64,000 nucleotides of DNA, taken from sequence record MW394390.1; one strand, 5' to 3'. Shown one piece after another: positions 12,217 through 34,972 of this stretch; position 1 is the first letter of the stretch; every line of letters begins with the position of its first letter. The notes under the pieces were generated by a model that worked only from the letters and a program-made list of their open reading frames with translations, searched no databases and had not been told where the DNA came from. This stretch comes from Klebsiella phage vB_KpM_FBKp34. A program made the translations under genes and the position numbers.

Positions 12217-12395
12217 TTACAGTAATTAGTTATATTGTCTTAAGACACTTATTTCAAGAAGATTATCCTGGATGGTTGTTATTCCTTCCGGTGGTATTGG
12301 ACTTAACTTTAATTGATCGTATAGGTAAATAGCATATGTATAGAGGTTATGTTTTAAAAAATGAATTTGTTAATAAAATTTTAGGAGAAGAAATG

Positions 12396-12746
12396 AATAA
12401 AGAAATTAAAGTAGCAAAACCACGTTTTCACAAGAAGCGTAAACCAGTCCCAGTTCGTAAGAAAACTGACATTACCGTTTACTATTCCACAGGGGAAAAA
12501 TATACCATTAAAAATGTAAAAGCTTTATGTGTTAAAGGTGATACTATCTGCATTGGTTTGACTCCAGAGGTTAAAAATGGATATTTTGAGGGAAATTCTT
12601 TTGGTTTCACTACTGGAAATGTGGATTCTTTCCTTGTAAAAACACCAAAAGGAAGTTATACTCTTGATTCTGTTGGAGACAATGAGTTTATTCTGACTCA
12701 AGAAGGTTCTGTTATGACTCTGACGGAGCTAAATCAGACCTTTTAA
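12396..12746 (+). CDS. hypothetical protein
   Basis: ORF 12336-12746; the ATG at 12396 is preceded by AGGAGAAG. Confidence 0.45.
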   Translation, partial: NKEIKVAKPRFHKKRKPVPVRKKTDITVYYSTGEKYTIKNVKALCVKGDTICIGLTPEVKNGYFEGNSFGFTTGNVDSFLVKTPKGSYTLDSVGDNEFILTQEGSVMTLTELNQTF

Positions 12747-21266: not shown

Positions 21267-21458
21267 ATGTTTATATGTCTTTGTAATAAAATTAATGACA
21301 AAATGCTACAAAAAGTTATAAAAGATTTTTCTTGTAAGTCATTGGAAGATGTGCAAAGATATATACCAGTCGCCACTTGTTGTGGTAAATGTAAACAAAC
21401 GATAGTTGAGGTGTTAAATGAAAATAATGATAGCTCTTTGTCTGATCCTGTTTTGTAG
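21267..21458 (+). CDS. BFD-like [2Fe-2S]-binding domain protein
   Basis: 63 aa; CLCNKI...CCGKCK pattern typical of the bacterioferritin-associated ferredoxin domain. Confidence 0.5.
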   Translation: MFICLCNKINDKMLQKVIKDFSCKSLEDVQRYIPVATCCGKCKQTIVEVLNENNDSSLSDPVL

Positions 21459-21624
21459 TTTGACAATGGCTGAAGATAGCGTTACAGTTAAACGAGTGTA
21501 CAACGGCTACACTGCTGTTAACAAGATTTACATCATGAAGGACGATATTAATGGAAAATTCTGTTATATTGTGTATAATGATGCAGGTAGTAACGCAATG
21601 TACTGTTTTGATAAGCAAAAATAA
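21418..21624 (+). CDS. small secreted protein
   Basis: 68 aa; signal-peptide-like MKIMIALCLILFCSLTMA. Confidence 0.4.
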   Translation: MKIMIALCLILFCSLTMAEDSVTVKRVYNGYTAVNKIYIMKDDINGKFCYIVYNDAGSNAMYCFDKQK

Positions 21625-21652
21625 TTTATTTTAAACTGAGGAGAGTAAAATA

Positions 21653-22630
21653 GTGACACATCATTTTGGGTTCCCCCTTCTGGATATTGCAGTTCTTGTT
21701 GGAGTTCTTGCACTATCAATCCTTGTAGATTTCTTTGGACACAAGGAAAATAAAGAGATCGGTATTAAGTCTGCATTGGCTTGGTCTGCATTTTGGATCG
21801 CATTAGCATTTGCATACTATGGTTTTATTTGGGTAGAGTATGGCAAAGAATTTGCCTCTTTGTTTCTGAGTGGGTATGTGCTAGAAAAATCATTGTCTGT
21901 GGATAACTTGATGGTGTTCATGGCAATCTTCGCTAGCTTCGGGATCAAATCGACACACTTACAGCATAAGATTCTTCTTTGGGGTATTGCTGGTGCCATT
22001 GTATTTCGAGGTATCTTTGTGGCAGCAGGTACGGCAATCTTTAATTTACACTGGTTTTTCCAAGTGCTGTTCGGTCTGATTGTAGCATGGTCTGCACTGG
22101 CTATTATCAAAGGCGGCGATGATGAGGAAGATGAAGTTGATTACTCTAAACACTGGGCGACTCGTCTGGTTGGTAAGATTCTTCCTGTTCATCCGGCTCT
22201 AGATGGCGAGAAATTTATCACCATTAAGAATGGGATCAAGTATGCAACTCCGGCTTTGTTGTGTGTCTTTGTAGTGGAGTTTACTGATGTAATTTTCTCC
22301 TTTGACTCTGTCCCGGCTGTAATTGGTGTGACGCAAGAACCTCTGCTGGTTTACTCTGCAATGTTATTTGCAATTCTTGGTCTCCGTGCACTGTTCTTTG
22401 TACTGAGTGTAGCAGTTAAATACTTGGTTCATCTGGAAAAAGCCGTTGCTGTAGTTCTAGTGTTTGTAGGTGCTAAACTGATTTACCATCCTTTTGGTGA
22501 GACACTAAATGCAAAATGGTCTTTCCTGCCACATGATATCTCAGCAAACGTAAGTCTTTGTATTGTACTTGGAACGCTGGCCTTGGGTATTATTGCAAGT
22601 CTGGTTTTTCCTGAGAAAAAAGAAGCTTGA
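21653..22630 (+). CDS. TerC-family integral membrane protein
   Basis: 325 aa, multi-pass; LEKSLSVDNLMVFMAIFASF matches the TerC E-x-SLSVDN signature; GTG start with RBS GAGGAGA. Confidence 0.7.
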   Translation: MTHHFGFPLLDIAVLVGVLALSILVDFFGHKENKEIGIKSALAWSAFWIALAFAYYGFIWVEYGKEFASLFLSGYVLEKSLSVDNLMVFMAIFASFGIKSTHLQHKILLWGIAGAIVFRGIFVAAGTAIFNLHWFFQVLFGLIVAWSALAIIKGGDDEEDEVDYSKHWATRLVGKILPVHPALDGEKFITIKNGIKYATPALLCVFVVEFTDVIFSFDSVPAVIGVTQEPLLVYSAMLFAILGLRALFFVLSVAVKYLVHLEKAVAVVLVFVGAKLIYHPFGETLNAKWSFLPHDISANVSLCIVLGTLALGIIASLVFPEKKEA

Positions 22631-22634
22631 GAAT

Positions 22635-22657
22635 AGCCCCGAAAGGGGCTTTAGTTT
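22635..22657 (+). terminator. rho-independent terminator
   Basis: AGCCCCGAAAGGGGCT hairpin followed by TTAGTTT. Confidence 0.55.
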
Positions 22658-22674
22658 AAAGAGGAAACTTTAAC

Positions 22675-23037
22675 ATGAATGATATTTTTGATGAAATGGA
22701 AGAATATGCTTGGGCTTTGGGTGATAATGTAAATGCAATGGCTTTACTCCAAGAAAGATACCCACAAACAAACATTCAGATCTTAGAAGTTTCCGATCTA
22801 ATTCTTCCTAAAGGTGTTGTAGCTTGTTGTGGTACGGGCGCAGGGGAAGTAACACCTGTAAAACGTTTAGAAATGGCTTTTGGCTCCAGTTTAAATGGTG
22901 AAATGGAAAATGCTACCTTTGTCCAATTCTGGACTTCACCAAATGCTAAATTATTTGACAACACAACTTGGGAACTTTTCTTCTGGGATCAGGTGAAGGA
23001 TCGAGAGGTACAGTTTGAAGTTCCTGTTGTAGAATAA
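22675..23037 (+). CDS. hypothetical protein
   Basis: 120-aa ORF with RBS AAGAGGA. Confidence 0.5.
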   Translation: MNDIFDEMEEYAWALGDNVNAMALLQERYPQTNIQILEVSDLILPKGVVACCGTGAGEVTPVKRLEMAFGSSLNGEMENATFVQFWTSPNAKLFDNTTWELFFWDQVKDREVQFEVPVVE

Positions 23038-23146
23038 TGTTGACTTTTGCTAAGACAAGCTTTATAGTTTGTCTTGTTGAAAGAAACAAACCAGTAAGGA
23101 GTAAAAATGTTTGCTGAAGAAGATATTCATTCAGAGATAGAATGGC

Positions 23147-23353
23147 TTGAATTTATTACAGAAAATTGGGAAGGTTAAAATGTTTGATTTGACTTATCAG
23201 TTTGACCCTGAGAGAGTATGTCTATGCCCAATTTGTGATCAACCAATGTTTACTTACGAAGCAGTAACAACTATCGTAGTCGATGATTGTCAATGTATGG
23301 CACACAATTTTTGTGCAATCAATTTCGACGAGGAAGAAGACGATGAAGATTGA
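23147..23353 (+). CDS. hypothetical zinc-finger protein, acidic C-terminus
   Basis: 68 aa; CLCPICDQ...CQCMAHNFC...EEEDDED. Confidence 0.4.
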   Translation: MNLLQKIGKVKMFDLTYQFDPERVCLCPICDQPMFTYEAVTTIVVDDCQCMAHNFCAINFDEEEDDED

Positions 23354-23528
23354 GATCATTCACTCAGCAGGAACACCTTTTGAGGAAGGTAAACAATATG
23401 ACTTGGTCTACGATAGATATCTTCGTACCTATATGATCCAAGAGTGGGAACATGGTGAGTTATTGGAAACGTGGCTCAATGATTTGATTCATGATGCAGT
23501 TGAGTTTAAAATTATTAAGGAGAGTTAA
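23343..23528 (+). CDS. hypothetical protein
   Basis: ORF 23283-23528 trimmed to the ATG at 23343. Confidence 0.35.
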   Translation: MKIEIIHSAGTPFEEGKQYDLVYDRYLRTYMIQEWEHGELLETWLNDLIHDAVEFKIIKES

Positions 23529-23732
23529 ATGCCCAACATGAGCTATTGCCAATTTAGAAATACAGAAGGTGATTTTCGTCAATGTCTTGATGCAATTGGC
23601 AACGCAGAGTCAATTGAAGATTTTTCACAAAGTGAGCAAAACTCTGCGGAAAATTTATATGAAATGGCGAAAGATTATGTCAATTGGTATGAACAATTAT
23701 TAGATCAAGAGGTTGAAGATGAAGATTGTTGA
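23529..23732 (+). CDS. hypothetical acidic protein
   Basis: 67-aa ORF. Confidence 0.4.
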   Translation: MPNMSYCQFRNTEGDFRQCLDAIGNAESIEDFSQSEQNSAENLYEMAKDYVNWYEQLLDQEVEDEDC

Positions 23733-23976
23733 ACAATATGTTTTTGAAGTTGGGGATGTCTTTACAGGTAAAGGTGATGGTTGTTGGTTAGTGCCAAATC
23801 AACGAAGACTCCTTTCAGCACCAGATCACTATCTTTTTGTAAAAGAAGTTGGGATCAATGCAGTTTATCTTTGTGGTGTAGGGTATGCTTATAATTTTTC
23901 ACCAGAAGAGTTGACAGACCATATTAAAAAAGATAATCTCATTTATCTTGGTAATGTTTACAAAGGTAAAAACTAA
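23713..23976 (+). CDS. hypothetical protein
   Basis: 87-aa ORF. Confidence 0.45.
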   Translation: MKMKIVEQYVFEVGDVFTGKGDGCWLVPNQRRLLSAPDHYLFVKEVGINAVYLCGVGYAYNFSPEELTDHIKKDNLIYLGNVYKGKN

Positions 23977-24308
23977 TGAAAATTTTAATTATCTATGAAA
24001 ATATTCCAGAAACAACAGATCTTTTTGTTCTTGAAACTTCTGATTCTGAAGAGATCAAAAATCTGAGCGTCATTCATGGACACTATATTAATGCAGAAGA
24101 GAATGAAAAAATTCTTGACAATTGTACACGGTGGTACTATAAGCTATACGGTGAGACTACTTGGGCTGACAAGGAAGAGTATAGTAAATATGGTGTGCAG
24201 GATAGTGAAGTAGGAAAATATCTTAAAAATAAGATTGACTATCAAGATATCTTAGATGTAAAATCTTTAGATATTGATTATGTAGTTGTAACAGGATTTA
24301 TTTGTTAA
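23976..24308 (+). CDS. hypothetical protein
   Basis: 110-aa ORF. Confidence 0.45.
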   Translation: MKILIIYENIPETTDLFVLETSDSEEIKNLSVIHGHYINAEENEKILDNCTRWYYKLYGETTWADKEEYSKYGVQDSEVGKYLKNKIDYQDILDVKSLDIDYVVVTGFIC

Positions 24309-24328
24309 TTTAGAGGAGAAACACTAAT

Positions 24329-25042
24329 ATGAGTAATAAACTATCACTTGAGAAACGTACTGAGACTGTAAAACTGTCCCTGGAAAAAGCTGGTGTTCAA
24401 CGCAAGGATATTTGTCTCCGTGTAGCGCTTGCACTGGATAAAAGTGGATCAGCAGAAGATTTCTATCGTAATGGTCAATTTGAAGAGTTGGTTGATCGAC
24501 TCCTACCAGTCTCTGCAAATATGGATGATGACGGTACTATTGACACTTGGCTATTCCATACTCGCTCAATGGAGGTTGAACCTGCAACACCTAAAAACTA
24601 TGGCGGATACATCTCTAACGTCATCATGAAGGGTAAATATAAAAACGAGTGGGGTGGTACTAATTATGCTCCAGTGATGAAAGACATTCATCATCATTAC
24701 TTTGGAAAAGAAGAGAAGAAAGGTCTGTTTGGTTTTGGTAAAGCCAAAACTGTCCCTGTAACAGATTCAGATATTCCCGCACTTGTTTTCTTTATTACCG
24801 ATGGTTCTAATAGTGATCGGGTTGAGACTTTGCGACTACTTGACAGTATCAAAGATGAGCCTGTATATTGGATGACAGTAGGTGTTGGTCCAGATAGCTA
24901 CTTCACTTTCCTTCGTGAGATTGCTGAACGTTATGATAATGTAGGATTTGTTAATTTTAACAATCTAAATATTAGTGATGAGCAAATGTATAATGCAATC
25001 ATTGATGGTGAACTTGCAGCATGGATTAATAAGGTCTCCTAA
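24329..25042 (+). CDS. vWA-domain protein (TerY-like)
   Basis: 237 aa; MIDAS motif LALDKSGSAED (DxSxS); position immediately upstream of two TerD genes, as with TerY in ter operons. Confidence 0.55.
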   Translation: MSNKLSLEKRTETVKLSLEKAGVQRKDICLRVALALDKSGSAEDFYRNGQFEELVDRLLPVSANMDDDGTIDTWLFHTRSMEVEPATPKNYGGYISNVIMKGKYKNEWGGTNYAPVMKDIHHHYFGKEEKKGLFGFGKAKTVPVTDSDIPALVFFITDGSNSDRVETLRLLDSIKDEPVYWMTVGVGPDSYFTFLREIAERYDNVGFVNFNNLNISDEQMYNAIIDGELAAWINKVS

Positions 25043-25109
25043 AAGAGTTGACTTTAAATTTTACTTTGAATATAATATTTAAACTGAATAACTAAGAGAG
25101 GAAATAAAT

Positions 25110-25691
25110 ATGTCACTTAATCTGGAAAAAGGTTCTTCATTGCCAATGGTTAAAGAAGATGGCAAAACTCCACTAAAACGAGTTCGTGTAGAGTTATCCT
25201 GGAATCCTAATACCAATTCATCTTCACATGATTTTGATCTGGATGTTCTTGGCGCAGTCTGTAAGAATGAAAATCTGCAAGCTGTATCAGTTAGTGAAGT
25301 TGCATACTGGGGGCAAAAACAGACTAAAGCAATTAACGTCTCCCCTGATAATCAAACTGGTATTGGTGATGGTGTTGATGAGTTCCTGGATATTAATCTT
25401 GAAAATGTGTCTTCAGACGGAGATCGTATTCCAGTTTTGGTTTATATCTACAATGCACGACCACGAAATCAGAGTTTTGCTCAGGTAGATGGTGCTAGTG
25501 TTGTTCTTCGTGACCTTGACTCAGGTAAAACTATTGGTTCTTGTAATATCTCTGAGAAAGGTTCTTCTATAGATGAGTCGCTTCTTGTTGGTGTATTTGA
25601 GAAACAAGCAGATGGAACTTTTATTTACAACCAAGTGAATGAGTTTTATGATAAGAGTTTTCAAGAATGGGTAGGTGTTTTTACTAACTAA
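25110..25691 (+). CDS. TerD-family protein
   Basis: 193 aa; MSLNLEKGSSL, DFDLDVLG, PDNQTGIGDGVDEFLDINL and RNQSFAQVDGA are collinear with E. coli TerD. Confidence 0.8.
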   Translation: MSLNLEKGSSLPMVKEDGKTPLKRVRVELSWNPNTNSSSHDFDLDVLGAVCKNENLQAVSVSEVAYWGQKQTKAINVSPDNQTGIGDGVDEFLDINLENVSSDGDRIPVLVYIYNARPRNQSFAQVDGASVVLRDLDSGKTIGSCNISEKGSSIDESLLVGVFEKQADGTFIYNQVNEFYDKSFQEWVGVFTN

Positions 25692-25752
25692 TTAGTTAAA
25701 GGCACTATTGGAGATAGTGCCACTTTTAATCTCGAAAACAGGAGAAAATATT

Positions 25753-26334
25753 ATGGTTTTAAGTCTGGATAAAGGTTCTAAGCTGTCACTAGATAAATTT
25801 CAAGCATCTGATCTGAAAGTATTGCGTGTTGAAATGACTTGGGACGCACCAGAGAAAACGAGTTCTTTCTTTAAGAGCTATGATTATGATCTTGATGTAA
25901 TTGCAGTTATTGTAGACAAAGATAATAAGGCTGTGGATGGCTCTAAACACTTTTGTTTCTTCAACCAACAGGAAACTCCAGCAATCAAAAGTTCTGGAGA
26001 TGATTTAAATGGGGAGGATGGCGGTGAATCTCTCCTGATTACCCTGGATAAAGTTCCTGAAAAAGGTAAACATATTCCAATTATTGTTGACCTTCATAAG
26101 GCTAAGGAACGTAAACAGAACCTTTCTCAAATGAAAGATGGTACGGTTCGTATTCTTAATCATGAAACAGACGAACTTCTTGCAGAAATTAAGATGAATA
26201 CTTTCTCAAGTAATGATACATCTATCTTGTTTGTGGTTGTTAATCGCACGGATACGGGTTTTGAAGTAGAGAACGTTAGTACAGCATACCCTAAGAGTAT
26301 TGTTGACTGGATTGAACTTTACCAAGTACAATAA
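25753..26334 (+). CDS. TerD-family protein (second paralog)
   Basis: MVLSLDKGSKLSL...YDYDLDV...GDDLNGEDGGESLLITLDKVP; start set to the ATG at 25753 after AGGAGAAAAT. Confidence 0.7.
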   Translation: MVLSLDKGSKLSLDKFQASDLKVLRVEMTWDAPEKTSSFFKSYDYDLDVIAVIVDKDNKAVDGSKHFCFFNQQETPAIKSSGDDLNGEDGGESLLITLDKVPEKGKHIPIIVDLHKAKERKQNLSQMKDGTVRILNHETDELLAEIKMNTFSSNDTSILFVVVNRTDTGFEVENVSTAYPKSIVDWIELYQVQ

Positions 26335-26352
26335 GATCATTTTAAACTGTTA

Positions 26353-26377
26353 GGTGGGCCGATGCCCACCTTTTATT
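26353..26377 (+). terminator. rho-independent terminator
   Basis: GGTGGGCCGATGCCCACC hairpin followed by TTTTATT. Confidence 0.6.
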
Positions 26378-26392
26378 AGGAAGGAGATTAAA

Positions 26393-27271
26393 ATGAGTGC
26401 AGACTATAAAAACCTTTTCAATAAACAAAAAGATTATTCTAATCTGTTCTCTGACAGTCAAAAACAAACTAAACAGGAATCAAACATGTCATATAAAAAT
26501 ATATTTGGCAATTCGGTATCTGTTCCCGAAGTTACTAAAATAAAATCAGTTTTCCCTGAAAAACAAATTGATGCACGAGTAAAAGATATTCAAACTATAG
26601 ATGCTAAAATTAGTACCCATGCTGTGATAAGCTGGATAGATAATTTTGATAATAACTTCAAGAAACTCACTACCATCAACCAGGAAGTTTCTCAATGTGA
26701 GTTAGATTTAGCAATGGAATTTACTAGTGGCAGACTTCAAGTACAAACCCTCTTCAATGATATAAAACAGGCTGTTTCCAAGTTAAAGGGACCGCAAAAG
26801 AAGCCTGGGCTACTATCACGTATTTTAGGTTCTAATGAGGAGTTTAAGTTAACTCAGGAAATTATTACCGAAGTTATCCAAGAGATTAAATTAAACTTGG
26901 AACAATTTAAGAACAAGGCCAAATATAACACTAGCATGTTTTTAAAATCAGAAATGAGGGCTATAGAAGCTAAAATTTTGGATTTAAAAAGTGACCTGGA
27001 GTGTGCTATTGTTGCTGCAACTTACATGATAAATAGTGATGATTTTAAGGGAACTGTTAGATTAGAGAAATTAAAACAAGTAAGTGGTTTAACAAATATT
27101 TCAGAATTGCAATTAAAAAATACTTACCAACTTCTTGAGAAAGATCTTGAAGCATACGAGAACTTAAAAAACATGACAATTCCATTTTTGTATGCTAAGA
27201 TCCAAACCTTAATGAGTAGCACTTTAGATTCTGAAGCGCTTAACGTGATTAATGATATTGATAAACTTTGA
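26393..27271 (+). CDS. TelA-like helical protein, paralog 1 (call by context)
   Basis: 293 aa from the ATG at 26393 (RBS GGAAGGAG); shares the N-terminal MS..YKNLFNK motif with the next gene; all-helical and Lys/Glu-rich; sits after TerD as TelA/YceH does in ter clusters. Confidence 0.35.
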   Translation: MSADYKNLFNKQKDYSNLFSDSQKQTKQESNMSYKNIFGNSVSVPEVTKIKSVFPEKQIDARVKDIQTIDAKISTHAVISWIDNFDNNFKKLTTINQEVSQCELDLAMEFTSGRLQVQTLFNDIKQAVSKLKGPQKKPGLLSRILGSNEEFKLTQEIITEVIQEIKLNLEQFKNKAKYNTSMFLKSEMRAIEAKILDLKSDLECAIVAATYMINSDDFKGTVRLEKLKQVSGLTNISELQLKNTYQLLEKDLEAYENLKNMTIPFLYAKIQTLMSSTLDSEALNVINDIDKL

Positions 27272-27281
27272 GGATTAAATT

Positions 27282-28358
27282 ATGTCATATGGTAATCTAT
27301 TCAATAAAACACAAGCTGCTGAAAATGTTGCAAACAAAAACTCTACAACATTTACTCAACCTGTAAAATCTTTACCTATTTTAAAAGATGCAGAAGGCAA
27401 TACTTATGCAATGGAATTGAGTGAAATTCAAAATTTTGGTATTGTTAAAAATTCAAAACAATCTGAAATTAATAATCAAATCTTATCTAAAACTCTTGTT
27501 GCAGATAGTGGTGTAATGGCACAAGGCTTTACTCAAATTATGGCTCTATCTGAAAAAGTAGATATTGGTTCTTTAACTGATGGCAAAGTTGGTTTCTTAA
27601 AAAGTTTACGTAATAAGTTTATTGATCGTAAAGCTGAAGTGAAAGCTCAATTTACTACTGTGCGTAAACAAATTACAGATGTCGCAGCTAACCTTAAGAC
27701 GAAACTTATTGAAATGGAAGAAGAAGGTAAGTGGTTAGAATCTATGTATAAGGCAAACCTTGAAGAAGTTCGTATGTGGGAGCAAAATAAAATTCTTGTT
27801 AATGATGCACTTGAACAAGCTGAGAGTTACCTACAAAACTTAATTAATACAGATGCCTCCGTAGATCAAATCGAAGAAACTCGAATGAAAGTTAATGCAC
27901 TAAGTAAACAAGCAGATAAAGTAAATAAAATGCACCAACTGAGTGCTATTGCTGCACCAGAGATACGTATGATGCAAGTTACCAACTTCAATAATGTGAA
28001 TAAGTTCAATGATATTCTTGAGTTAACAATCCCATACTGGGAAAAGAAAATGTCCCTGGCATTAAACGCAGAAAATCAGCGACAACAAATTGCTCAAGCA
28101 AAAGTTATGGATGATTTTACTAACAACTTAATTCAAGAAACCGCTAAACAGGTAGGACAAAATATGGTAGATTCGGCTAAAGCAAATCAAAGAGGGATTG
28201 CTGATGTAGATATTATGGTAGAAGCTACTAATGTCATTATCAATTCTATAAAAGAAGTTGTAGAGATTGATAAGAATGGTAATAATGTACGTAAAGAAAA
28301 TGCCAAAAAGATTGAAAAATCTTTGGTAGATATGCAGGATGCATTACGTAGTGTATAA
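27282..28358 (+). CDS. TelA-like helical protein, paralog 2 (call by context)
   Basis: 358 aa, a size typical for TelA/KlaB; coiled-coil-rich; paralogous N-terminus MSYGNLFNK. Confidence 0.4.
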   Translation: MSYGNLFNKTQAAENVANKNSTTFTQPVKSLPILKDAEGNTYAMELSEIQNFGIVKNSKQSEINNQILSKTLVADSGVMAQGFTQIMALSEKVDIGSLTDGKVGFLKSLRNKFIDRKAEVKAQFTTVRKQITDVAANLKTKLIEMEEEGKWLESMYKANLEEVRMWEQNKILVNDALEQAESYLQNLINTDASVDQIEETRMKVNALSKQADKVNKMHQLSAIAAPEIRMMQVTNFNNVNKFNDILELTIPYWEKKMSLALNAENQRQQIAQAKVMDDFTNNLIQETAKQVGQNMVDSAKANQRGIADVDIMVEATNVIINSIKEVVEIDKNGNNVRKENAKKIEKSLVDMQDALRSV

Positions 28359-28374
28359 AATTTTATGTTGACTA

Positions 28375-28405
28375 AAAGGGGCTAATTGCCCCTTTACTAT
28401 TTTTA
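28375..28405 (+). terminator. rho-independent terminator
   Basis: AAAGGGGCTAATTGCCCCTTT hairpin followed by ACTATTTTT. Confidence 0.6.
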
Positions 28406-28422
28406 AAATATAAGGAGGACTT

Positions 28423-28932
28423 TTGCTAAAGAAACTGCCAATGATTTTGTTGACAGCGATACTAGCGCTTCAGAACGCTGCTGCGAGCACTTCAAGTAAA
28501 GATAAGCCATTACATACCTGTACTAAGAAAGATTCAACCACGCTCGTTTTGGCGTGCTCTATGTATGCTGAGGCACGTGGAGACGGTGAAAAAGGTATGT
28601 TGATGGTAGGTAATGTAATTTTAAACAGGAAAAATCATGAAGATTACCCCTCTAAAATCAAAAAAGTAGTTTATCAGAAGAATCAATTTTCATACTTAAC
28701 AGGAAGTCCTGTAAGAATTTATGAAAAAGACACCTGGAATAAAGCTAAAAACTTAGCTAAATTTTTGATTTTATTAGAGAATGAAGATCCTTCTCTGAGG
28801 GTATTGCACGACCGAACTAAAGGTGCTATCTTTTATGTCAAGAGAGGTACAAGAGTAGCTTGGTTAAAATCAATGAAAAAGGTTGCAAGCTATAAAGACC
28901 ATGATTTCTATGTTCCAAAATCAGATACATAA
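28423..28932 (+). CDS. SleB-like cell wall hydrolase (Hydrolase_2 family), secreted
   Basis: 169 aa; signal peptide MLKKLPMILLTAILALQNAAAS; LACSMYAEARGDG...VGNVILNR...YQKNQFS matches the SleB family; TTG start 5 nt after TAAGGAGG. Confidence 0.6.
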   Translation: MLKKLPMILLTAILALQNAAASTSSKDKPLHTCTKKDSTTLVLACSMYAEARGDGEKGMLMVGNVILNRKNHEDYPSKIKKVVYQKNQFSYLTGSPVRIYEKDTWNKAKNLAKFLILLENEDPSLRVLHDRTKGAIFYVKRGTRVAWLKSMKKVASYKDHDFYVPKSDT

Positions 28933-28944
28933 TGGAGATTAAAA

Positions 28945-29196
28945 ATGGCTGGTTATCACATTAAAGAAATTGAAAAACGTCGTTATGGATCATTAGGTAA
29001 GATTCAGGAGGAAGTAGAAGAACTTCTAGATGCACATCAACAAGGTAGCTACATTATGATGTTGGTAGAACTCTCTGATTTATACGGTGCTATTGAAGGT
29101 TTCATGGAAGAAAACTTTCCTGACATGAAGATTGCAGATCTTAAAAAGTTCTCAGATATCACAAAACGTGCGTTTAAAGAAGGTCATCGATCATGA
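28945..29196 (+). CDS. MazG/HisE-like all-alpha NTP pyrophosphohydrolase
   Basis: 83 aa; IQEEVEELLDAH...MMLVELSDLYGAIEGF matches the EExxE...E(L)xD(L) metal-binding helices of MazG/HisE. Confidence 0.45.
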   Translation: MAGYHIKEIEKRRYGSLGKIQEEVEELLDAHQQGSYIMMLVELSDLYGAIEGFMEENFPDMKIADLKKFSDITKRAFKEGHRS

Positions 29197-29783
29197 ACAT
29201 AAATCTTGACTTGATCCAAAAAGCTATTGATTGGTATAGCACAGATTGTGTTTTATCAAGCGTACCATACTTAGTGGACCAAGATATTATGAAGTGGACT
29301 TGTCCACCTGGTGTTGTAGATCGTAGAATGACACACTACAATGATAAACAATACGTTGCCAGTGCAGAACAATCTTTCCTTCAGCTAGAGAAAGATGGAG
29401 AGATAACAGATGGGATTAAACCGCTTATTGCATTGACGCCTTGTTATAGAGACGAACCAATTCTTGATGAGACTCATTTTAACATCTTTTTAAAATTAGA
29501 AATTTTTGATTATAACCCTAAAGGTCCAGTAGATTATTCAGTTTTCTGGGCTAAAAGAATGTCTCTATTTTTCCTAGAGTTTGATCTAAAAACAGACATC
29601 ATTCAAACAGATATTGGTTATGATGTGATGTACGGAGACTTAGAGTTAGGAAGTTTTGGAGAAAGAATCTCACCAAAAGGTATCCCTTACGTGTATGGTA
29701 CAGGTCTTGCAGAACCCAGGGCATCTTTAGCATTACAAAGAAATTCTAAAAAGTTGTTGCTTTCTGACTCAAGTGTGTCATAA
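29193..29783 (+). CDS. small class-II aminoacyl-tRNA-synthetase-like ligase core (AsnA/EpmA-like?)
   Basis: 196 aa; LTPCYRDEP resembles class II motif 2 (c-[FY]-R-[DN]-E) and VYGTGLAEPRASLAL resembles motif 3 (G-x-G-x-x-R). Confidence 0.3.
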   Translation: MNINLDLIQKAIDWYSTDCVLSSVPYLVDQDIMKWTCPPGVVDRRMTHYNDKQYVASAEQSFLQLEKDGEITDGIKPLIALTPCYRDEPILDETHFNIFLKLEIFDYNPKGPVDYSVFWAKRMSLFFLEFDLKTDIIQTDIGYDVMYGDLELGSFGERISPKGIPYVYGTGLAEPRASLALQRNSKKLLLSDSSVS

Positions 29784-29814
29784 TTAGCTCATCAAAACAT
29801 GAGAGGGCTTATTA

Positions 29815-30117
29815 ATGAAACGTACATTAGGTTTTCAAGCAGAAGATTTGATTTTCAAAAGTGAAGAATTCAATATCTTTAATGAGTTCACTACTGAAAT
29901 CTCTGCTACAAAGATATTTGAATACGCCAATGAGATTAAGAATAACTGTTCAGAAGATCAGTATGCGATAGCTTGGGCTTGTGCACTTAAAGGTGCTAGG
30001 GCTGGTCTTGATAATTGGGAAGAGGATGGTGCTCTAGGTGGTATTGAGGATTATATGGATGATGGAATCATAGCCGAACTCTATGACTTTTTCTTTACCT
30101 GTAATGGAGCAGCTTAA
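29815..30117 (+). CDS. hypothetical protein
   Basis: 100-aa ORF with RBS GAGAGGG. Confidence 0.45.
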   Translation: MKRTLGFQAEDLIFKSEEFNIFNEFTTEISATKIFEYANEIKNNCSEDQYAIAWACALKGARAGLDNWEEDGALGGIEDYMDDGIIAELYDFFFTCNGAA

Positions 30118-30119
30118 TA

Positions 30120-30395
30120 ATGAAATTATCAGATGCACAAATCTACACTTTACGTAGAATGAATTCTGGTACAAGATACTTCATGAGAGGTGATGGTCTC
30201 AAAGGTGAAGAAGATCGAAGTGTAAGATACTCCGTAGACAGGGTAAACTGTAAATCAATCCCTGTGCTCTATGAAAAAGGTCTAGTAGAATTTTGTAGTG
30301 ATTGTTTGAAACTTAAATCTAGTTGGTATAGTATAAGACTTTCATTACTAGGCAAAGAAATCTTACAAGATCTTAAAACATCTGGAGAAAAATAA
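30120..30395 (+). CDS. hypothetical protein
   Basis: 91-aa ORF. Confidence 0.45.
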   Translation: MKLSDAQIYTLRRMNSGTRYFMRGDGLKGEEDRSVRYSVDRVNCKSIPVLYEKGLVEFCSDCLKLKSSWYSIRLSLLGKEILQDLKTSGEK

Positions 30396-31045
30396 TGATT
30401 AAGCATATCTCTTTTGACGTATGGAATACTTTGATCACTGCAAATCCTTTATATAGTGAAATTCGTACTAAAATAATTGCAAAGTATGCAAATGTAACTG
30501 ATCGTGAAGCAGGTACAATGTATCGGAAAGTAAAGAAATATTTAGACCAAAACGCAGAAAAAGGTATTTGTAGTTTTACCTCGACTGCTTGGTATGTTTT
30601 AGGTAAAAATTTAAACATGGAACCAAAAGCAATTACTCAAATGCAACGCGAATGTGAAGAAGCTTTTCTTGCATTCTCACCACGTTTAAATGAAGATTTA
30701 GTTGACCAATTAATAAGCCTTGATGACAAGTATGAACTGAGTATTAAAAGCAATACTAACTTTATTTCAGGAAGGATCTTGTCTGAAGCTGTAGGCTTTG
30801 ATAGAATGCCATGGTGTAGTTTTATGCATTTCTCGGATGAACATCTGCTTTGTAAACCAGACATTTTATTCTTTGCTAAAACTCTGCTTTCTAGTAAGCT
30901 GTCTAACCTAGCAAACTACGAAATTTTGCACATTGGGGATAGTGAAGTTTTTGATGGAAAATGTGTTGACTTAGGATTTAAGTTCTGCCATATTAAAAAC
31001 CCTGAAGACCTTTTAAACAAACTCATTAATGGAGAAGTAATCTAA
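30395..31045 (+). CDS. HAD-superfamily hydrolase (haloacid-dehalogenase-like)
   Basis: 216 aa; motif I ISFDVWNTLI (compare FDxYGTL) and motif IV HIGDSEVFD. Confidence 0.5.
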   Translation: MIKHISFDVWNTLITANPLYSEIRTKIIAKYANVTDREAGTMYRKVKKYLDQNAEKGICSFTSTAWYVLGKNLNMEPKAITQMQRECEEAFLAFSPRLNEDLVDQLISLDDKYELSIKSNTNFISGRILSEAVGFDRMPWCSFMHFSDEHLLCKPDILFFAKTLLSSKLSNLANYEILHIGDSEVFDGKCVDLGFKFCHIKNPEDLLNKLINGEVI

Positions 31046-31869
31046 TGCGTAATGAAACTCAATTCTTTACTCACGCTTTTTCTGAACTGAAATCTGCACC
31101 ATTTTCACCTGAGAAATATTCTCGTTTGAAGTTTGGTAGTGATAAAGTAGCTAAAGAATTTGGTTATGATCTTGCAGACTCATTCTTCAAGCATTATGGT
31201 GATGATTTTATTGAACACAAAGGTGTAGTTATTCCATCACCTTATAATCAAGTTAAGAATGCTGCAACAATCATGTCTGAACATTTCATGGATCGTATGA
31301 ATGACCTGTTGGTTTCTCATGGTGGTTCAAATCTCGAATGGTCCGTCATTAATCGTAAAGTTTCTTATATTAACGACTATGGTTTCCTCGATAAAGAGAA
31401 GCGTAAAGCTTTGATTGATGGAGATGTGTTCCATTTGAACAAAGGTTTTCTTGAAGGTAAGAAACTCATTTTTATCGACGACGTCAATATCACTGGGACG
31501 CATGAAGACAAACTGATTGAAATCTTGGATCATAATGAAATTAAAAATGATGCATATTTCCTGTACTATGCTAAGTACACAAAAGGTGCAGTAGATGCTA
31601 ATATTGAAGCAGCATTGAACTTTGCCGGGATCCGTGATGCACGAGATTATGTTGCATTGACAGCAGAAAAGAACCACCATCTGATTGTGCGTCCTATTAA
31701 GTTTCTGATGAGCCGGGATCCTGCGGAATTTGAAAAAGTTATTAAAGACCTTGACATTGAGTTCATCCAGAAATTATACTATGGTTGCTTAAGTGAAGGT
31801 TATCATAAGATTAAAGAATATCAGATTAACTTTAAATTTCTGATGTGGTATCTTGGTAAAAATAAATAA
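31045..31869 (+). CDS. type-I phosphoribosyltransferase-like protein
   Basis: 274 aa; KKLIFIDDVNITGTH fits the PRPP-binding signature (hydrophobic-hydrophobic-D-D-hydrophobic-x-x-T-G). Confidence 0.5.
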   Translation: MRNETQFFTHAFSELKSAPFSPEKYSRLKFGSDKVAKEFGYDLADSFFKHYGDDFIEHKGVVIPSPYNQVKNAATIMSEHFMDRMNDLLVSHGGSNLEWSVINRKVSYINDYGFLDKEKRKALIDGDVFHLNKGFLEGKKLIFIDDVNITGTHEDKLIEILDHNEIKNDAYFLYYAKYTKGAVDANIEAALNFAGIRDARDYVALTAEKNHHLIVRPIKFLMSRDPAEFEKVIKDLDIEFIQKLYYGCLSEGYHKIKEYQINFKFLMWYLGKNK

Positions 31870-31878
31870 GGAGTCATT

Positions 31879-32298
31879 GTGAAATCATTAATTATCTCTC
31901 TGAAACAAATCCTGTCAGAATCAAAAGAAGAATTATCTACGGTAGGATTGCAACTGGCAAGTCTGGGAATGTTCATGGATTCTCTAAACTATGTTTACAA
32001 GAATAAGAACGGAACTACCTTTACTTACAAAGGAGAGGATAAACGTTTTCCAAAGGAACTTACCTGGAAAGATGCAGTAATTTTGCATAATACTGGTTTC
32101 TTTCTTATTGGTGATAAAGGATTTTACCAAGTTCCTCAAATGCATGTACATTATGTTAAGAGTTATACGTTTGATCTAAAAGAAGCTGTCAACTCTTCTC
32201 CTCTGGTTAAGATTTATCTTCAGTGGAACAAAAAGAAGAAACACTGGCAAACATCTACTAATCGTATTAAATTTAACGAGGAGTATTTCAATGGGTGA
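31879..32298 (+). CDS. hypothetical protein
   Basis: 139 aa; GTG start after AGGAG. Confidence 0.45.
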   Translation: MKSLIISLKQILSESKEELSTVGLQLASLGMFMDSLNYVYKNKNGTTFTYKGEDKRFPKELTWKDAVILHNTGFFLIGDKGFYQVPQMHVHYVKSYTFDLKEAVNSSPLVKIYLQWNKKKKHWQTSTNRIKFNEEYFNG

Positions 32299-32551
32299 AG
32301 TTATCAGTTTTGATTTCAAAGAAAAGAAAAAGATTGAAAAATATGTAATTACACCTTGGAAATGTCTTGTTTGCAAAATAGCTTTCCAGTATGATTCTCG
32401 CAAAGATAAAGAGAATATGCCAAGGATTATTCTTCGTGAAGGAACTAAGCAACGTTCTGAAGAAGCAATATGCAAGAATTGCTCCCTGGATATAAAAGCA
32501 ACTGCTGAAGATTGTAAGTGGAAATATGATGAGGAAGACAGCAATGACTGA
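32291..32551 (+). CDS. hypothetical zinc-ribbon protein
   Basis: 86 aa; CLVCK...CKNC. Confidence 0.45.
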   Translation: MGEVISFDFKEKKKIEKYVITPWKCLVCKIAFQYDSRKDKENMPRIILREGTKQRSEEAICKNCSLDIKATAEDCKWKYDEEDSND

Positions 32552-32963
32552 TATCACCGAACTGGCGCAGAGCCTGAAAGCGGCAGCAGATAGAGAGATG
32601 ATTTGCCGAGATGGCGCCGAAACTTCTGAAATCTGGGAAAGAACTGTAACGCCGGAAAACATCCTCGCGCTGGTAGAGGCGCTGGAGAAGGCACAGGCGG
32701 ACCACCGACTACACGCAGCGCGGTTAATCAGCGAAAAAGCTTTGTTGAATGAGCGCATCGCCGAGCTGGAGTCCCGCACCGTGACGCTGCCGAAACCTAA
32801 AGATTCTGACCCGGGTTGGAAAATTGATCCAGAATTTATCAGCAAAGTTCAGAACGCAATAGGGTACGATGACCAATGCGAATGTTGGGAGGGTACACCT
32901 TCCATGGAGGTAGTAGAGGCCGTTTTGCTGGCCGCCGCTGGCATCAAGGTGGAGGCTGAATGA
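32544..32963 (+). CDS. lambdoid-prophage-like protein (Ead/Ea22-like?) in a GC-rich island
   Basis: the ATG at 32544 (MTDITELAQSLKAAADRE...) follows GAGGA; about 57% GC against about 36% in flanks; enterobacterial-type codon usage. Confidence 0.45.
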   Translation: MTDITELAQSLKAAADREMICRDGAETSEIWERTVTPENILALVEALEKAQADHRLHAARLISEKALLNERIAELESRTVTLPKPKDSDPGWKIDPEFISKVQNAIGYDDQCECWEGTPSMEVVEAVLLAAAGIKVEAE

Positions 32964-33139
32964 TGGCAGAGCTTTGGAAAACATATCTCACTATCGCATT
33001 CATCGGCTTGGGAGCTACGCCGATAAGCATGGTAGCGGCAAAGATTGACGTACCTGTTTGGGCGCTTATTGCCGGGCACTGCGGCGCGATTATAGCAGGA
33101 TTTATTTGTGCAGAACTTGGAAAGGGGGACAACCAATGA
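32960..33139 (+). CDS. small membrane protein (59 aa) in the GC-rich island
   Basis: MMAELWKTYLTIAFIGLGATPISMVAAKIDVPVWALIAGHCGAIIAGFICAEL; ATGA overlap with the upstream stop and TGA/ATG overlap with the downstream gene; below the ORF-track cutoff. Confidence 0.4.
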   Translation: MMAELWKTYLTIAFIGLGATPISMVAAKIDVPVWALIAGHCGAIIAGFICAELGKGDNQ

Positions 33140-33552
33140 CCAAATCAACCATAACCAGAGATGAGCTTAACGAAGTGATTTCCACATACGGAAAGCATCA
33201 CATTGCTCATCGAATGGCTAATGCATTGTTGGCCGCAATGGACAGCGAGCCGGATTGTAATGAGCGACAGCTTTTCTGTTCAACCGATACAGCTAGGATG
33301 AGGAAGGCAATCTCTGTCTCTGCTGGGACCAAGGTTGCACCGATTTATCACCATACTAAGCCAGCACCGGTAGTGCCGGATAACAGAGCTATTACTGTGG
33401 TGTTAAAATATACATCAGAGCCAAACGCCTTTGCTCCATGGGTAGCAAAAGCTTTTTATCAGTTTCATAAAGATACAGTAGATTCTTGTGTAAAAGCTTT
33501 CTCTGAAGCGTGTAATGAATCTAATATAAAACTTGAGATCATTTATAAATGA
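33136..33552 (+). CDS. hypothetical protein spanning the island junction
   Basis: ATG at 33136 (MTKSTITRDELNEV...) after AAGGGGGA; GC content decays toward the phage-like level across this gene. Confidence 0.45.
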   Translation: MTKSTITRDELNEVISTYGKHHIAHRMANALLAAMDSEPDCNERQLFCSTDTARMRKAISVSAGTKVAPIYHHTKPAPVVPDNRAITVVLKYTSEPNAFAPWVAKAFYQFHKDTVDSCVKAFSEACNESNIKLEIIYK

Positions 33553-34055
33553 ATAACTTATCAAATACAGAATTATCAAATATTAAATGGTATGCAGGAG
33601 AGGCCATGTGCCATTCTGATCCTAATTATCAACAAGAATTCTATAACCTAGTCTACCCTGGGAATGTGTTGAGTTTAGTTACTGAATTACAGCAACTTAG
33701 GGAAGATAATAAAACACTAGAAGAAACAGTTGAGGAGTTGAAAAATATTTGTGCTGAATCTTATCAAGTAGTCGGTTATCTTGCATATAGATCGGGAGTG
33801 TTTGATGAACTTCGTGTTATAAAAGCCTTAGATAATCTATCCTCTCAAGAGATGCTACATAAAGATATTTTACCTTTTTCTTTAGATGAAGATATTATGG
33901 TAAATTTTGAACAACATAAATTACGTGAGTTAGTAGATCTTGTTTGGAATACTGCTACTGAAAGTACTGAAGTGCCAAGCACAAAATGGGCTGATGAATT
34001 AATTACTAAAGTTTTTGGAGTTTATAAAAATGACAACTACTCCCCTGTTAGCTAG
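33549..34055 (+). CDS. hypothetical protein
   Basis: 168-aa ORF. Confidence 0.45.
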   Translation: MNNLSNTELSNIKWYAGEAMCHSDPNYQQEFYNLVYPGNVLSLVTELQQLREDNKTLEETVEELKNICAESYQVVGYLAYRSGVFDELRVIKALDNLSSQEMLHKDILPFSLDEDIMVNFEQHKLRELVDLVWNTATESTEVPSTKWADELITKVFGVYKNDNYSPVS

Positions 34056-34677
34056 TCGGTTAAAAGGCTACAATAAAAATATTTTTGTTGTTCCTAACGC
34101 TTTACCTTTTGATGAAAGCCAGTTTACAATTAGTAGAGATAAAGACTTCAAAAGTCCTATTGTATGGGTTGGCGGTGCATCTCATTATCCAGATTTAAAA
34201 GAAATTAAAGGTTGTTCTTTTATCAAGCCGCCGACGCTTTGTGGCTATGAACCTAAACCAGGACTTACACATGAGGAGTGGTTAAAGATCAGGGATGATC
34301 ATCCGACAGCCACATATGAAAAAGGATTACAAGAGTCTAATTATATGGACTTGTACGATGGTCATAAAGTTAGCATTGCGCCTTTATTAAATTCTGACTT
34401 TAATGCTTGCAAATCTAACTTAAAAGTGTTAGAATCTGGAGCTAAAGGATTACCTATCGTCTGCTCTAAAGTAGAACCCTACTACAATTCTATTGATTCC
34501 AAATATGTTTTATATGCAGAAACAAAACATGAATGGGAAACACATGTAAATAATCTTATAAAATATGAAGCATACAATGAAGATGTAGGTAAAGCTTTGT
34601 CTGAACATGTAAGATTACAGTATAATTTAAAAGATATTAATATCTTAAGAAAACATATTATTGAATCATTTAATTAA
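34030..34677 (+). CDS. glycosyltransferase-like protein (GT-B C-terminal-domain-like)
   Basis: the ATG at 34030 follows GGAG; KVLESGAKGLPIVCSKVEPYYNSID resembles the GT1 C-terminal E-x7-E region. Confidence 0.3.
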   Translation: MTTTPLLASRLKGYNKNIFVVPNALPFDESQFTISRDKDFKSPIVWVGGASHYPDLKEIKGCSFIKPPTLCGYEPKPGLTHEEWLKIRDDHPTATYEKGLQESNYMDLYDGHKVSIAPLLNSDFNACKSNLKVLESGAKGLPIVCSKVEPYYNSIDSKYVLYAETKHEWETHVNNLIKYEAYNEDVGKALSEHVRLQYNLKDINILRKHIIESFN

Positions 34678-34713
34678 CATTGTCCATCCTTTGGGCATTT
34701 TACGGAAGGTGTT

Positions 34714-34965
34714 ATGAAAAATATTATCTCTTTGTGCGTCCCGTACAATACATCTACTTCACAGACATTTTATGTAGATGTTGAAATTGATTATCAACTC
34801 CCAGATTTAAATCAAAATGATTCTGACTGGGATTATTATGGATGTTTTGATATTGTAGACTATTCCTCTGATTATCCTGATGAAATAAATCTGAATAAAC
34901 TTAAGCAAATTTGTCGTGAATATATTCGTGAACTTGTTATCTCCCAAACATTATATTTAGAGTAG
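34714..34965 (+). CDS. hypothetical acidic protein
   Basis: 83-aa ORF. Confidence 0.4.
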   Translation: MKNIISLCVPYNTSTSQTFYVDVEIDYQLPDLNQNDSDWDYYGCFDIVDYSSDYPDEINLNKLKQICREYIRELVISQTLYLE

Positions 34966-34972
34966 GAGGCTC

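Follow-up and report, generated by a model that had tools for sequence, protein, structure and literature searches.

The bacterial operons closest to the phage ter genes considered here are terZABCDEF of R478 (IncHI2) and yceCDEFGH of Bacillus subtilis, which likewise encode TerC, a TerF-type vWA, and several proteins with a TerD domain. In R478 TerF, the vWA is fused to TerD domains (the Pfam family PF10138 is named "vWA found in TerF C terminus"), whereas the vWA protein of the phage stands alone; TelA corresponds to YceH of the B. subtilis yce operon. Relative to terZABCDEF, the phage set lacks TerB, TerA, TerZ, and TerE and adds a phage-specific TelA partner, and its GC content and sequence are far from those of the host copy. 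The R478 ter locus inhibits phages and gives resistance to colicins (as cited in PMC8386662).

The locus itself has been published. Estrada Bonilla et al. (2021, DNA Res; PMC8386662) described the ter cluster of the same phage, as vB_KpnM_FBKp34, with terC numbered gp124, terF-vWA gp131, terD gp132 and gp133, and telA gp135, and suggested a possible anti-viral role for it. Theirs is the same sequence as ours, proteins of the window being identical to FBKp34 entries, and the gene numbering fits; gp134 is not named among the ter genes listed, and PRTase, phosphoribosyl, HAD, and phAPEC8 are all absent from their text by a term search. A superinfection-exclusion role for phage Ter had also been proposed (Iyer et al. 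2021; PMC7824862). The cluster, its presence in FBKp34, and the superinfection hypothesis were thus all in the literature before, and our finding adds little; the modest leads added are a linked HAD and PRTase_3 pair, a gp134-TelA pairing that is strict and accompanied by an N-terminal motif common to both, and evidence for cassette replacement.

Three other phage arrangements are informative. phAPEC8, type species of Phapecoctavirus, belongs to the same subfamily as FBKp34 (Stephanstirmvirinae) and has its Ter genes in the same slot, flanked by nrdD/nrdG on one side and by a SleB-type cell-wall hydrolase on the other. Its TerC is 87% identical to that of FBKp34 at the amino acid level, and an HAD-like protein, PRTase_3, TelA, vWA-TerF-like, and TerD are also present; however, HAD-PRTase_3-Macro lie upstream of TerC, whereas the FBKp34 HAD and PRTase_3 pair lies downstream of TelA, and phAPEC8 has an SprT-like gene plus a different TelA subtype, one TerD, and neither a gp134 family member nor the YGNLF motif. 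The TerD-TerD-gp134-TelA block of FBKp34 is of a different lineage from phAPEC8. Xanthomonas jumbo phage XaC1 (349 kb) and related metagenomic contigs contain a contiguous vWA-TerC-TerD-TerD-gp134 homolog-TelA cassette, with 76, 69, 63, and 67% identity to FBKp34 for TerD1, TerD2, gp134, and TelA, respectively, and the same N-terminal YxNLF motifs; the XaC1 TerC, though, is located within the cassette and is of the DUF475 subtype, and the vWA proteins are 31% identical. Lastly, the Otagovirus phages PhiPsa374 and VCM, virulent myoviruses of ~98 kb, carry TelA-vWA-TerC-TerD (PMC9796965), i.e., the same four families, but their order differs, TerC is short, TerD is present only once, a gp134 partner is lacking, and amino acid identity is 22-28%.

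Overall, the Ter module is standard in the whole subfamily Stephanstirmvirinae, and tblastn among 50,697 phage records found TerC in 174, vWA in 241, and TelA in 124. A preliminary description, made from the FBKp34 sequence alone, had considered a Ter set unusual on a virulent myovirus; the 2021 publication, the phAPEC8 locus, these counts, and Otagovirus all speak against that view.

Gene Content of the Ter Region

The window, i.e., the whole stretch of DNA analyzed, comprises 64,000 nucleotides (MW394390.1) of Klebsiella phage vB_KpM_FBKp34, a virulent Stephanstirmvirinae-type myovirus. It contains a genuine cluster of Ter (tellurite-resistance-type membrane and metal stress) genes at 21653-28358 (Table 1).

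Table 1. Features of the FBKp34 Ter region; positions are those of the window.
Feature	Position	Strand	Evidence
TerC family inner-membrane protein, Alx subtype (gp124)	21653..22630	+	PF03741, E 5e-41
Terminator-like GC hairpin 3' of TerC	22635..22650	+	Scan: 6 pairs, 5 GC
Six small ORFs (gp125-130)	22675..24308	+	No significant Pfam match
vWA protein, TerF C-terminal type, MIDAS motif DKSGS (gp131)	24329..25042	+	PF10138, E 2.6e-38
Sigma-70-like promoter match TTGACT-17-TATAAT, 11/12	25048..25076	+	Consensus match only; vWA-TerD intergenic gap
TerD domain protein 1 (gp132)	25110..25691	+	PF02342, E 4.6e-25; Ca-site motifs entered as DFDLD and DNQTGIGDGVDE
TerD domain protein 2 (gp133)	25753..26334	+	PF02342, E 1e-31
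Terminator-like hairpin, TerD2/gp134 gap	26352..26371	+	8 pairs, 6 GC, then TTTATT
gp134, all-helical partner protein of TelA	26393..27271	+	phrog_13312; no Pfam match
TelA, toxic anion resistance protein (gp135)	27282..28358	+	PF05816, E 1e-34
Terminator-like hairpin 3' of TelA	28375..28395	+	Scan: 8 pairs, 5 GC
HAD-like hydrolase	30395..31045	+	phrog_14393 "hydrolase", E 1.7e-86
PRTase_3, ComF-like phosphoribosyltransferase, Ter-associated	31045..31869	+	PF15610, E 1.5e-52, 179 bits

Pfam searches recovered TerC, the vWA protein, two TerD proteins, and one TelA where the preliminary description had placed them, and its six gene identities proved essentially right except for a TerY label and a second TelA. 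TerC also scores above the cut-off of TIGR03718, the NCBIfam model for the TerC/Alx subfamily (321.8 bits, cut-off 246.4), and LEKSLSVDN can be read directly in its translation, bearing out the E-x-SLSVDN motif originally noted. A yybP-ykoY Mn2+ riboswitch is absent before TerC, and an Rfam search of the whole window gave no match at or above the gathering score of any family. The second ORF upstream of TerC is BFD-like ([2Fe-2S]) and is conserved in the metagenomic relative L004; NrdD/NrdG lie further upstream. The small ORFs gp125-130 separate TerC from the vWA gene, and this spacer is variable, its content differing in KP13-16, L004, a second metagenomic relative (L008), and phAPEC8.

The vWA protein does have a MIDAS motif (D-K-S-G-S), but it is not TerY-like, since PF10138 (vWA-TerF-like), which it matches at 132.6 bits (cut-off 29.4), is of the TerF type. 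The TerY-P defense triad (TerY vWA, PP2C phosphatase, and Ser/Thr kinase) was rejected as a candidate on the basis of this TerF-type vWA, the lack of a match between any PADLOC model and any of the six Ter-cluster proteins, and the absence of kinase and phosphatase domains from the ORFs scanned.

The two TerD proteins, which are 30% identical to each other, match K. pneumoniae TerD (PDB 2kxt) at E 8e-16 (TerD1) and 1e-15 (TerD2). The motifs DFDLD and GDNxTGxGDGxDE had been named for the TerD domains; TerD1 indeed has canonical Ca-site motifs (DFDLD and PDNQTGIGDGVDE, read from the translation), whereas those of TerD2 are variants (DYDLD and GDDLNGEDGGE). For TerD2, a start at ATG 25753 is preferred to TTG 25708; its counterpart is annotated as 193 aa in KP13-16. 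The terminator scan returned 10 sites, compared with 4.4 +/- 2.2 in shuffles, and the three hairpins first proposed as terminators (22635, 26352, and 28375) are its three top-listed plus-strand sites. With 39 found and 32.4 +/- 6.0 expected, the region shows no enrichment of promoter-like sites.

All four families of the abbreviated phage Ter operon (TerC, TerD, TerF-type vWA, and TelA; PMC7824862) are present in the window. The set was nevertheless wrongly called complete: profile searches of the ORFs scanned from 21267 to 35671 gave no TerB match, and the HAD-like and PRTase_3 pair at 30395-31869 had been overlooked. This pair, ~2 kb downstream of TelA and beyond 21653-28358, belongs to the same Ter system; three arrangements link it to Ter genes, and the PRTase_3 family adjoins Ter genes in phAPEC8 and L008 too. 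The HAD-like ORF, the stop of which overlaps the start of the PRTase_3 gene, has no Pfam match of its own. It is 54% identical to the 218-aa phAPEC8 "dehalogenase-hydrolase" preceding PRTase_3, itself a PF00702 match below threshold, and 30% identical to a 215-aa ORF before PRTase_3 in L008; it aligns with the HAD phosphatase PDB 2om6 at E 0.004, FDVWNTL being common to both. Judged from these similarities, it is probably the phosphoesterase of a Ter-linked, nucleoside-like metabolite arm.

gp134 and TelA

Two TelA-like paralogs had been described. One is TelA itself, an exact match to QQV91763.1 of vB_KpM_FBKp34, after which comes a secreted SleB-type wall hydrolase. The other, gp134, was rejected as a TelA paralog: it matches no TelA model and belongs to a helical family with weak remote similarity to TelA. 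BLASTP against the adjoining TelA gave E 0.12, and profile-profile comparison (hhalign) gave E 6e-4 at 28% probability; among the Foldseek matches to its AF2 model (pLDDT 73) are TelA proteins of phages (E 0.015-0.045), but the reciprocal Foldseek search did not return gp134. No Pfam, NCBIfam, or PADLOC match was found for gp134, nor a Pfam match for its 26 relatives, and the family is rare, with 27 representatives among 1.84 billion proteins. The gp134 start is ATG 26393 and not GTG 26354, because the latter falls within the terminator hairpin.

A gp134-family gene lies directly upstream of TelA in 11/11 loci examined. The gp134 N-terminus is disordered and bears three YxN[LI]F repeats, and that of TelA has an invariant M-x-YGN[LI]F in alignment. 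The short motif common to both, [YWF]-x-[NDS]-[LIM]-F, is present in 2-4 copies in motif-bearing gp134-family proteins and once, at the extreme N-terminus, in TelA; in the nine gp134-TelA pairs compared, it is found in both partners or in neither. gp134 and TelA might together make up a scaffold of two proteins that is specific to phages and lies under the membrane, with the shared motif recruiting both to one common partner; we regard this arrangement as rather improbable.

Possible Roles of the Ter System

The most likely role, to which we assign a probability of roughly 45%, is that the phage's own abbreviated Ter system would keep the infected cell's envelope stable and its ions in balance and block competitors. 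Following the analyses of Anantharaman et al. (2012), as summarized in Iyer et al. (2021; PMC7824862), the Alx-type metal transporter TerC would sit in the inner membrane. On the same basis, TelA, gp134, and the vWA protein would build a structure under that membrane, the TerD proteins would act as ligand- or Ca-sensing modules, and the HAD and PRTase pair would give rise to a nucleoside-like signal. The Ter genes are probably expressed before lysis, because they lie in a plus-strand block with the replication genes (nrdG, primase-helicase, and DNA polymerase A) and a sigma-70-like site is upstream of TerD1. Stabilization of the envelope and ion balance during the latent period would then block entry of competitors such as superinfecting phages or colicins, in parallel with the inhibition of phages and the resistance to colicins seen with the R478 ter operon. 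Published proposals of a similar kind (PMC7824862 and PMC8386662) support this role at the level of hypothesis, and the superinfection control or membrane or metal manipulation suggested in the preliminary description agrees with the speculation in PMC7824862; our literature search on phage Ter genes found no experiment on any of them. Against exclusion stand the absence of TerB, treated as a sensor component of bacterial Ter systems, the lack of a PADLOC match, and a promoter match that is to consensus only in a region where such sites are not enriched.

A role in metal housekeeping is unlikely but is the most serious alternative. Here, the Alx-type TerC would export or deliver Mn2+ or another divalent ion and TerD would buffer Ca2+, maintaining ion levels for phage metalloenzymes or the metalation of exported phage proteins with no anti-competitor function. 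TerC does pass the TerC/Alx "metal homeostasis" model, and PMC10550928 and PMC10197570, which describe exoenzyme metalation by TerC proteins and Mn2+ export by Alx, support metal export and metalation well with no need for a defense function; in addition, TerC occurs without partners in many smaller phages. The neighbors mentioned above, i.e., the BFD-like ORF and NrdD/NrdG on one side and the secreted wall hydrolase on the other, fit as well. However, housekeeping leaves unexplained the strict TelA-gp134 pairing, the vWA protein, and the HAD and PRTase_3 pair travelling with the module, and the phage TerC is without the Mn riboswitch.

Counter-defense is improbable. The phage copies would disturb host Ter or nucleotide-based immune signaling, either as decoys or by way of a signal consumed or altered by HAD and PRTase, perhaps joined in relatives by Macro, a domain that adjoins HAD and PRTase_3 in phAPEC8 and KP2025. 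Inhibition of phages by ter operons of bacteria is on record (Whelan 1995, cited in PMC8386662), and such operons are described as widespread in Klebsiella (PMC12054061); yet the phage and K. pneumoniae TerD proteins match at domain level only (~61 bits), specific mimicry not being evident, and the module also occurs in phages of other hosts. A benefit to the infected cell, as tellurite or xenobiotic resistance, is what phage genome papers usually conclude from annotation (PMC11256456 and PMC11273794), but we consider it very improbable: any gain to the host would be brief because the phage is virulent, the set is without TerB, TerA, TerZ, and TerE, and Warring et al. (PMC9796965) judged incomplete Ter sets unlikely to give tellurium resistance.

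Phage Origin and Probable Replacement of the Cassette

Mis-assembly of host DNA into the phage contig, named at the outset as a refuting condition, has practically no chance of being correct: no point in its support was found, the GC content of the Ter region (0.33-0.38) is like that of the rest of the window, the Ter genes are under purifying selection (dN/dS 0-0.16 in unsaturated comparisons), and the gene order is kept in the independently sequenced KP13-16 (97% nucleotide identity) and in two metagenomic relatives (L004 and L008), with the slot common to phAPEC8. The region is genuine phage DNA.

The phAPEC8 slot, between nrdDG and the SleB-type hydrolase, contains a different TelA/vWA/TerD set. 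In FBKp34, the TerC and HAD-like proteins are of phAPEC8 type, whereas the TerD-TerD-gp134-TelA block is 63-76% identical to XaC1. The comparison points to a Ter cassette that was replaced in the slot by another version rather than lost. The implied recurrent selection for Ter function in the same slot would favor envelope protection and competitor exclusion as the role of the system.

What Ter proteins do is a decades-old question in both bacteria and phages. In virulent phages, the genes are under purifying selection and have apparently undergone a cassette swap in the same slot, which together suggest that they matter during lytic infection. If the gp134-TelA pair is the effector of a phage superinfection-exclusion or envelope-protection system, it would provide the first concrete handle on TelA protein function, and small tractable phages such as FBKp34 and phAPEC8 are good systems in which to probe the function of Ter.

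Composition and Phage Origin of the ter Cluster

Pfam HMM searches recovered TerC, two TerD proteins, and one TelA (E 4.6e-25 to 5e-41), as the preliminary description had proposed (Table), and a hairpin scan lists the three terminator-like hairpins that it named, near 22635, 26352, and 28375, ahead of all other + strand sites. The vWA domain also stands, but it is of the kind found at the TerF C-terminus rather than of the TerY type, and none of the six module proteins matched a PADLOC defence-system model, a collection that we presume covers the TerY-P system; a marginal PADLOC match of TerC to a 2TM effector (E 0.008) was set aside. TerC scored above the curated NCBIfam cut-off for the TerC/Alx metal-homeostasis subfamily. 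Rfam gave no match across the whole window, and thus no Mn riboswitch 5' of this Alx-type gene; the window likewise contains no tRNA genes. TerD1 and TerD2 share 30% identity, and each matches the solved K. pneumoniae TerD structure 2kxt; TerD1 has the canonical motifs DFDLD and DNQTGIGDGVDE, whereas TerD2, whose start is most likely at 25753, has the variants DYDLD and GDDLNGEDGGE. Because Pfam detected TerB in none of the ORFs scanned, calling the set complete was too strong.

Features of the window in and around the ter cluster, with other ORFs mentioned in the text
Feature	Position	Strand	Basis of assignment
BFD-like [2Fe-2S] ferredoxin, 63 aa	21267-21458	+	PF04324, E 8.5e-12
TerC (gp124)	21653-22630	+	PF03741, E 5e-41 (Pfam)
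Six small ORFs	22675-24308	+	No family match (Pfam)
vWA, TerF C-terminal type (gp131)	24329-25042	+	PF10138, E 2.6e-38 (Pfam)
TerD1 (gp132)	25110-25691	+	PF02342, E 4.6e-25 (Pfam)
TerD2 (gp133)	25708/25753-26334	+	PF02342, E 1e-31 (Pfam)
gp134	26354/26393-27271	+	No Pfam match
TelA (gp135)	27282-28358	+	PF05816, E 1e-34 (Pfam)
SleB-type cell-wall hydrolase	28423-28932	+	PF07486
196-aa ORF	29193-29783	+	PHROG 4806, E 7e-57; no Pfam match
HAD-like hydrolase (indirect)	30395-31045	+	phAPEC8 likeness, 2om6, PHROG; no Pfam match
PRTase_3	31045-31869	+	PF15610, E 1.5e-52 (Pfam)
286-aa ORF	39810-40670	+	No Pfam match
Tailspike-like ORF, 1200 aa	40832-44434	-	C-terminal Peptidase_S74 chaperone domain

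TelA is an exact match to QQV91763.1 and gp134 to vBKpMFBKp34_134, both of vB_KpM_FBKp34 (141,376 bp), and the FBKp34 gene numbers match the window exactly, six ORFs separating TerC from the vWA gene. The ter cluster of this phage is thus already published, under the heading of 'possible anti-viral functions' (PMC8386662), and is not new. Nor is it host DNA mis-assembled into a phage contig: its GC content (0.33-0.38) is that found elsewhere in the window, the same gene order occurs in Klebsiella phage KP13-16 (Stephanstirmvirinae) and in L004 and L008, two metagenomic relatives at a greater distance, and pairwise dN/dS is 0-0.12 across the six genes relative to L004 and no higher than 0.16 in the remaining unsaturated comparisons. 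KP13-16 is 97% identical to the region at 94% coverage, the shortfall arising from a 1251-bp CDS in its TerC-vWA spacer that is missing from the window; this spacer (window 22675-24308, comparison locus L001 7023-9917) differs among relatives. Two ORFs upstream of TerC lies a BFD-like ferredoxin ORF, kept at the same position in L004, which may be linked to iron handling, NrdG chemistry, or the Ter locus.

The preliminary description held a full Ter set on a virulent-looking myovirus to be unusual, a view that the database does not bear out. In tblastn searches of 50,697 phage records, the window TerC was matched in 174 (107 of them named Escherichia phages), the vWA protein in 241, and TelA in 124; the divergent TerD2 was found in only 29 at the sensitivity used. 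Phage phAPEC8, the type species of Phapecoctavirus, whose TerC is 87% identical to that of the window, has a Ter locus at the equivalent position, flanked on one side by nrdD/nrdG and on the other by a SleB-type hydrolase gene, and containing HAD-like hydrolase, PRTase_3, Macro, TerC, SprT-like, TelA, vWA-TerF-like, and TerD genes; the KP2025 locus resembles it. Otagovirus phages, VCM and PhiPsa374 among them, carry TelA-vWA-TerC-TerD (PMC9796965), and Iyer et al. 2021 (PMC7824862) report abbreviated TerD/TerC/TerF/TelA operons from jumbo 'and certain other related smaller tailed phages'.

gp134 and Its Relationship to TelA

The preliminary description counted two TelA paralogs, of which only gp135 is recovered as such. 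Neither gp134 nor any of its 26 relatives has a Pfam match, and BLASTP of gp134 against the neighbouring TelA gave E 0.12; at the sequence level gp134 is not a detectable TelA. The GTG start first assigned to its ORF is overlapped by the hairpin at 26352-26371; judged by the KP13-16 annotation and by its ribosome-binding site, the gene starts at the ATG at 26393, for a product of 292 aa. The family is rare, with 27 representatives (E < 1e-3) among 1.84 billion proteins. The gp134 gene is directly 5' of the TelA gene on the same strand in all 11 loci inspected (window, L004, L008, jumbo phage XaC1, L006, fHe-Yen9-04 g335/g336, and L012-L016), every one of which was found through gp134- or TelA-family matches.

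A gp134 profile was collinear with the TelA alignment over 158 columns (E 6e-4, probability 28%). The AlphaFold model of gp134 is all-helical (pLDDT 73), and two phage TelA proteins are among its Foldseek matches in a viral library (probability 0.99, E 0.015-0.045). The reverse search did not return gp134, but it carries little weight given the poor quality of the TelA model (pLDDT 60.9); sequence searches of solved structures with TelA and gp134 gave chance-level matches only. Common descent with TelA is only weakly indicated, and we regard gp134 as an obligate TelA partner that is possibly a very divergent TelA paralog.

The two proteins also have an N-terminal motif in common. The disordered N-terminus of gp134 (window 26393-26510) contains YKNLF, YSNLF, and YKNIF, and its relatives have one to four copies of [YWF]-x-[NDS]-[LIM]-F; the adjoining TelA N-terminus (window 27282-27305) aligns as an invariant, single-copy M-x-YGN[LI]F. 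Motif-bearing relatives are L002, L006, L008, and L012-L014. Both partners have the motif in six of nine gp134/TelA pairs compared (one degenerate), and neither has it in the other three. Over six frames, the pattern occurs seven times in window ORFs of at least 60 codons, four of these in the gp134 and TelA N-termini. This joint presence or absence, together with the distribution in the window, suggests a docking motif shared by gp134 and TelA. An association with TerD was dropped, as contig L016 has TerD without the motif. The motif may resemble the beta-clamp-binding pentapeptide.

The HAD-like/PRTase_3 Gene Pair

About 2 kb 3' of TelA are two genes that the preliminary description missed, a putative HAD-like hydrolase and PRTase_3, whose stop and start codons overlap. 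The former has no Pfam match of its own, so its identification relies on indirect evidence: 54% identity to the hydrolase encoded 5' of the PRTase gene in phAPEC8, a match (E 0.004) to 2om6, a HAD phosphatase with which it has FDVWNTL in common, and a match to a PHROG 'hydrolase' family. In phAPEC8 the pair is 5' of TerC, whereas in the window it is 3' of TelA. In the ~153-kb relative L008, TelA is immediately followed by a HAD-like ORF and PRTase_3, together with a membrane-scaffold protein of the Band_7/SPFH type (10101-12566); Band_7 is absent from the window. Such a pair has been predicted to form the signal-biosynthesis arm of Ter systems (PMC7824862), and the text of the FBKp34 paper makes no mention of the pair (PMC8386662). 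Between the wall hydrolase and this pair is a 196-aa ORF matching a PHROG annotated 'histidyl tRNA synthetase'.

Mosaicism of the Locus

XaC1 shares 63-76% identity with the window across the TerD-TerD-gp134-TelA block, whereas its vWA is only 31% identical and its TerC is of the DUF475 rather than the Alx subtype. Conversely, TerC (87%) and the HAD-like ORF (54%) of the window are of the phAPEC8 type, and loci of that type contain no gp134 gene and a TelA of a different subtype. The simplest reading of these comparisons is an ancestral Stephanstirmvirinae Ter locus in which the TelA/TerD part was swapped for a jumbo-phage-type cassette. The lineage shows mosaicism on a finer scale as well. 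The vWA, TerD1, TelA, and wall hydrolase proteins are 98-100% identical to those of L004 (dS 0.01-0.2; 0.10-0.20 for vWA, TerD1, and TelA), whereas across window 25753-27271 (L004 9348-10867) TerD2 is 88% and gp134 75% identical in amino acid sequence (dS about 1.2); divergence so far above that of the flanking genes indicates a recombination exchange inside the module.

Elsewhere in the window, the tailspike-like ORF has a GC content of ~0.49, against ~0.35 in the rest of the window, which suggests a receptor-binding protein recently acquired from a higher-GC source. The GC-rich 40-44 kb stretch was considered as the IS200/IS605 element reported for FBKp34 and proved instead to be this ORF. 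The 286-aa ORF that follows DNA polymerase A has the C-terminus ...PPMDFDDDIPF, which on visual inspection resembles the acidic tail at the end of bacterial SSB.

Possible Function

The preliminary description was largely right in what it observed and only partly right in its interpretation. Its suggestion that the phage deploys Ter machinery itself, for example for superinfection control, had already been put forward by Iyer et al. 2021 (PMC7824862). That this is a phage Ter system is nearly certain. For its function we prefer the published protective or exclusion reading, at a probability of about 0.35-0.45: a membrane-associated, metal-dependent Ter complex would be made in the latent period, would guard the envelope and ion homeostasis, and would keep competitors out. 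The Ter genes belong to a + strand block that also contains nrdG, primase-helicase, and DNA polymerase A, and a near-consensus sigma-70-like site lies 5' of TerD1; both are supporting context, by position only. The main rival is metal housekeeping through the Alx-type TerC, a family with published roles in metal export and metalation (PMC10550928, PMC10197570); the BFD-like ferredoxin two ORFs upstream of TerC agrees with this rival. Less likely are a counter-defence role of phage Ter genes and tellurite resistance benefiting the host. The gp134-TelA pair offers a small new handle on phage Ter function.
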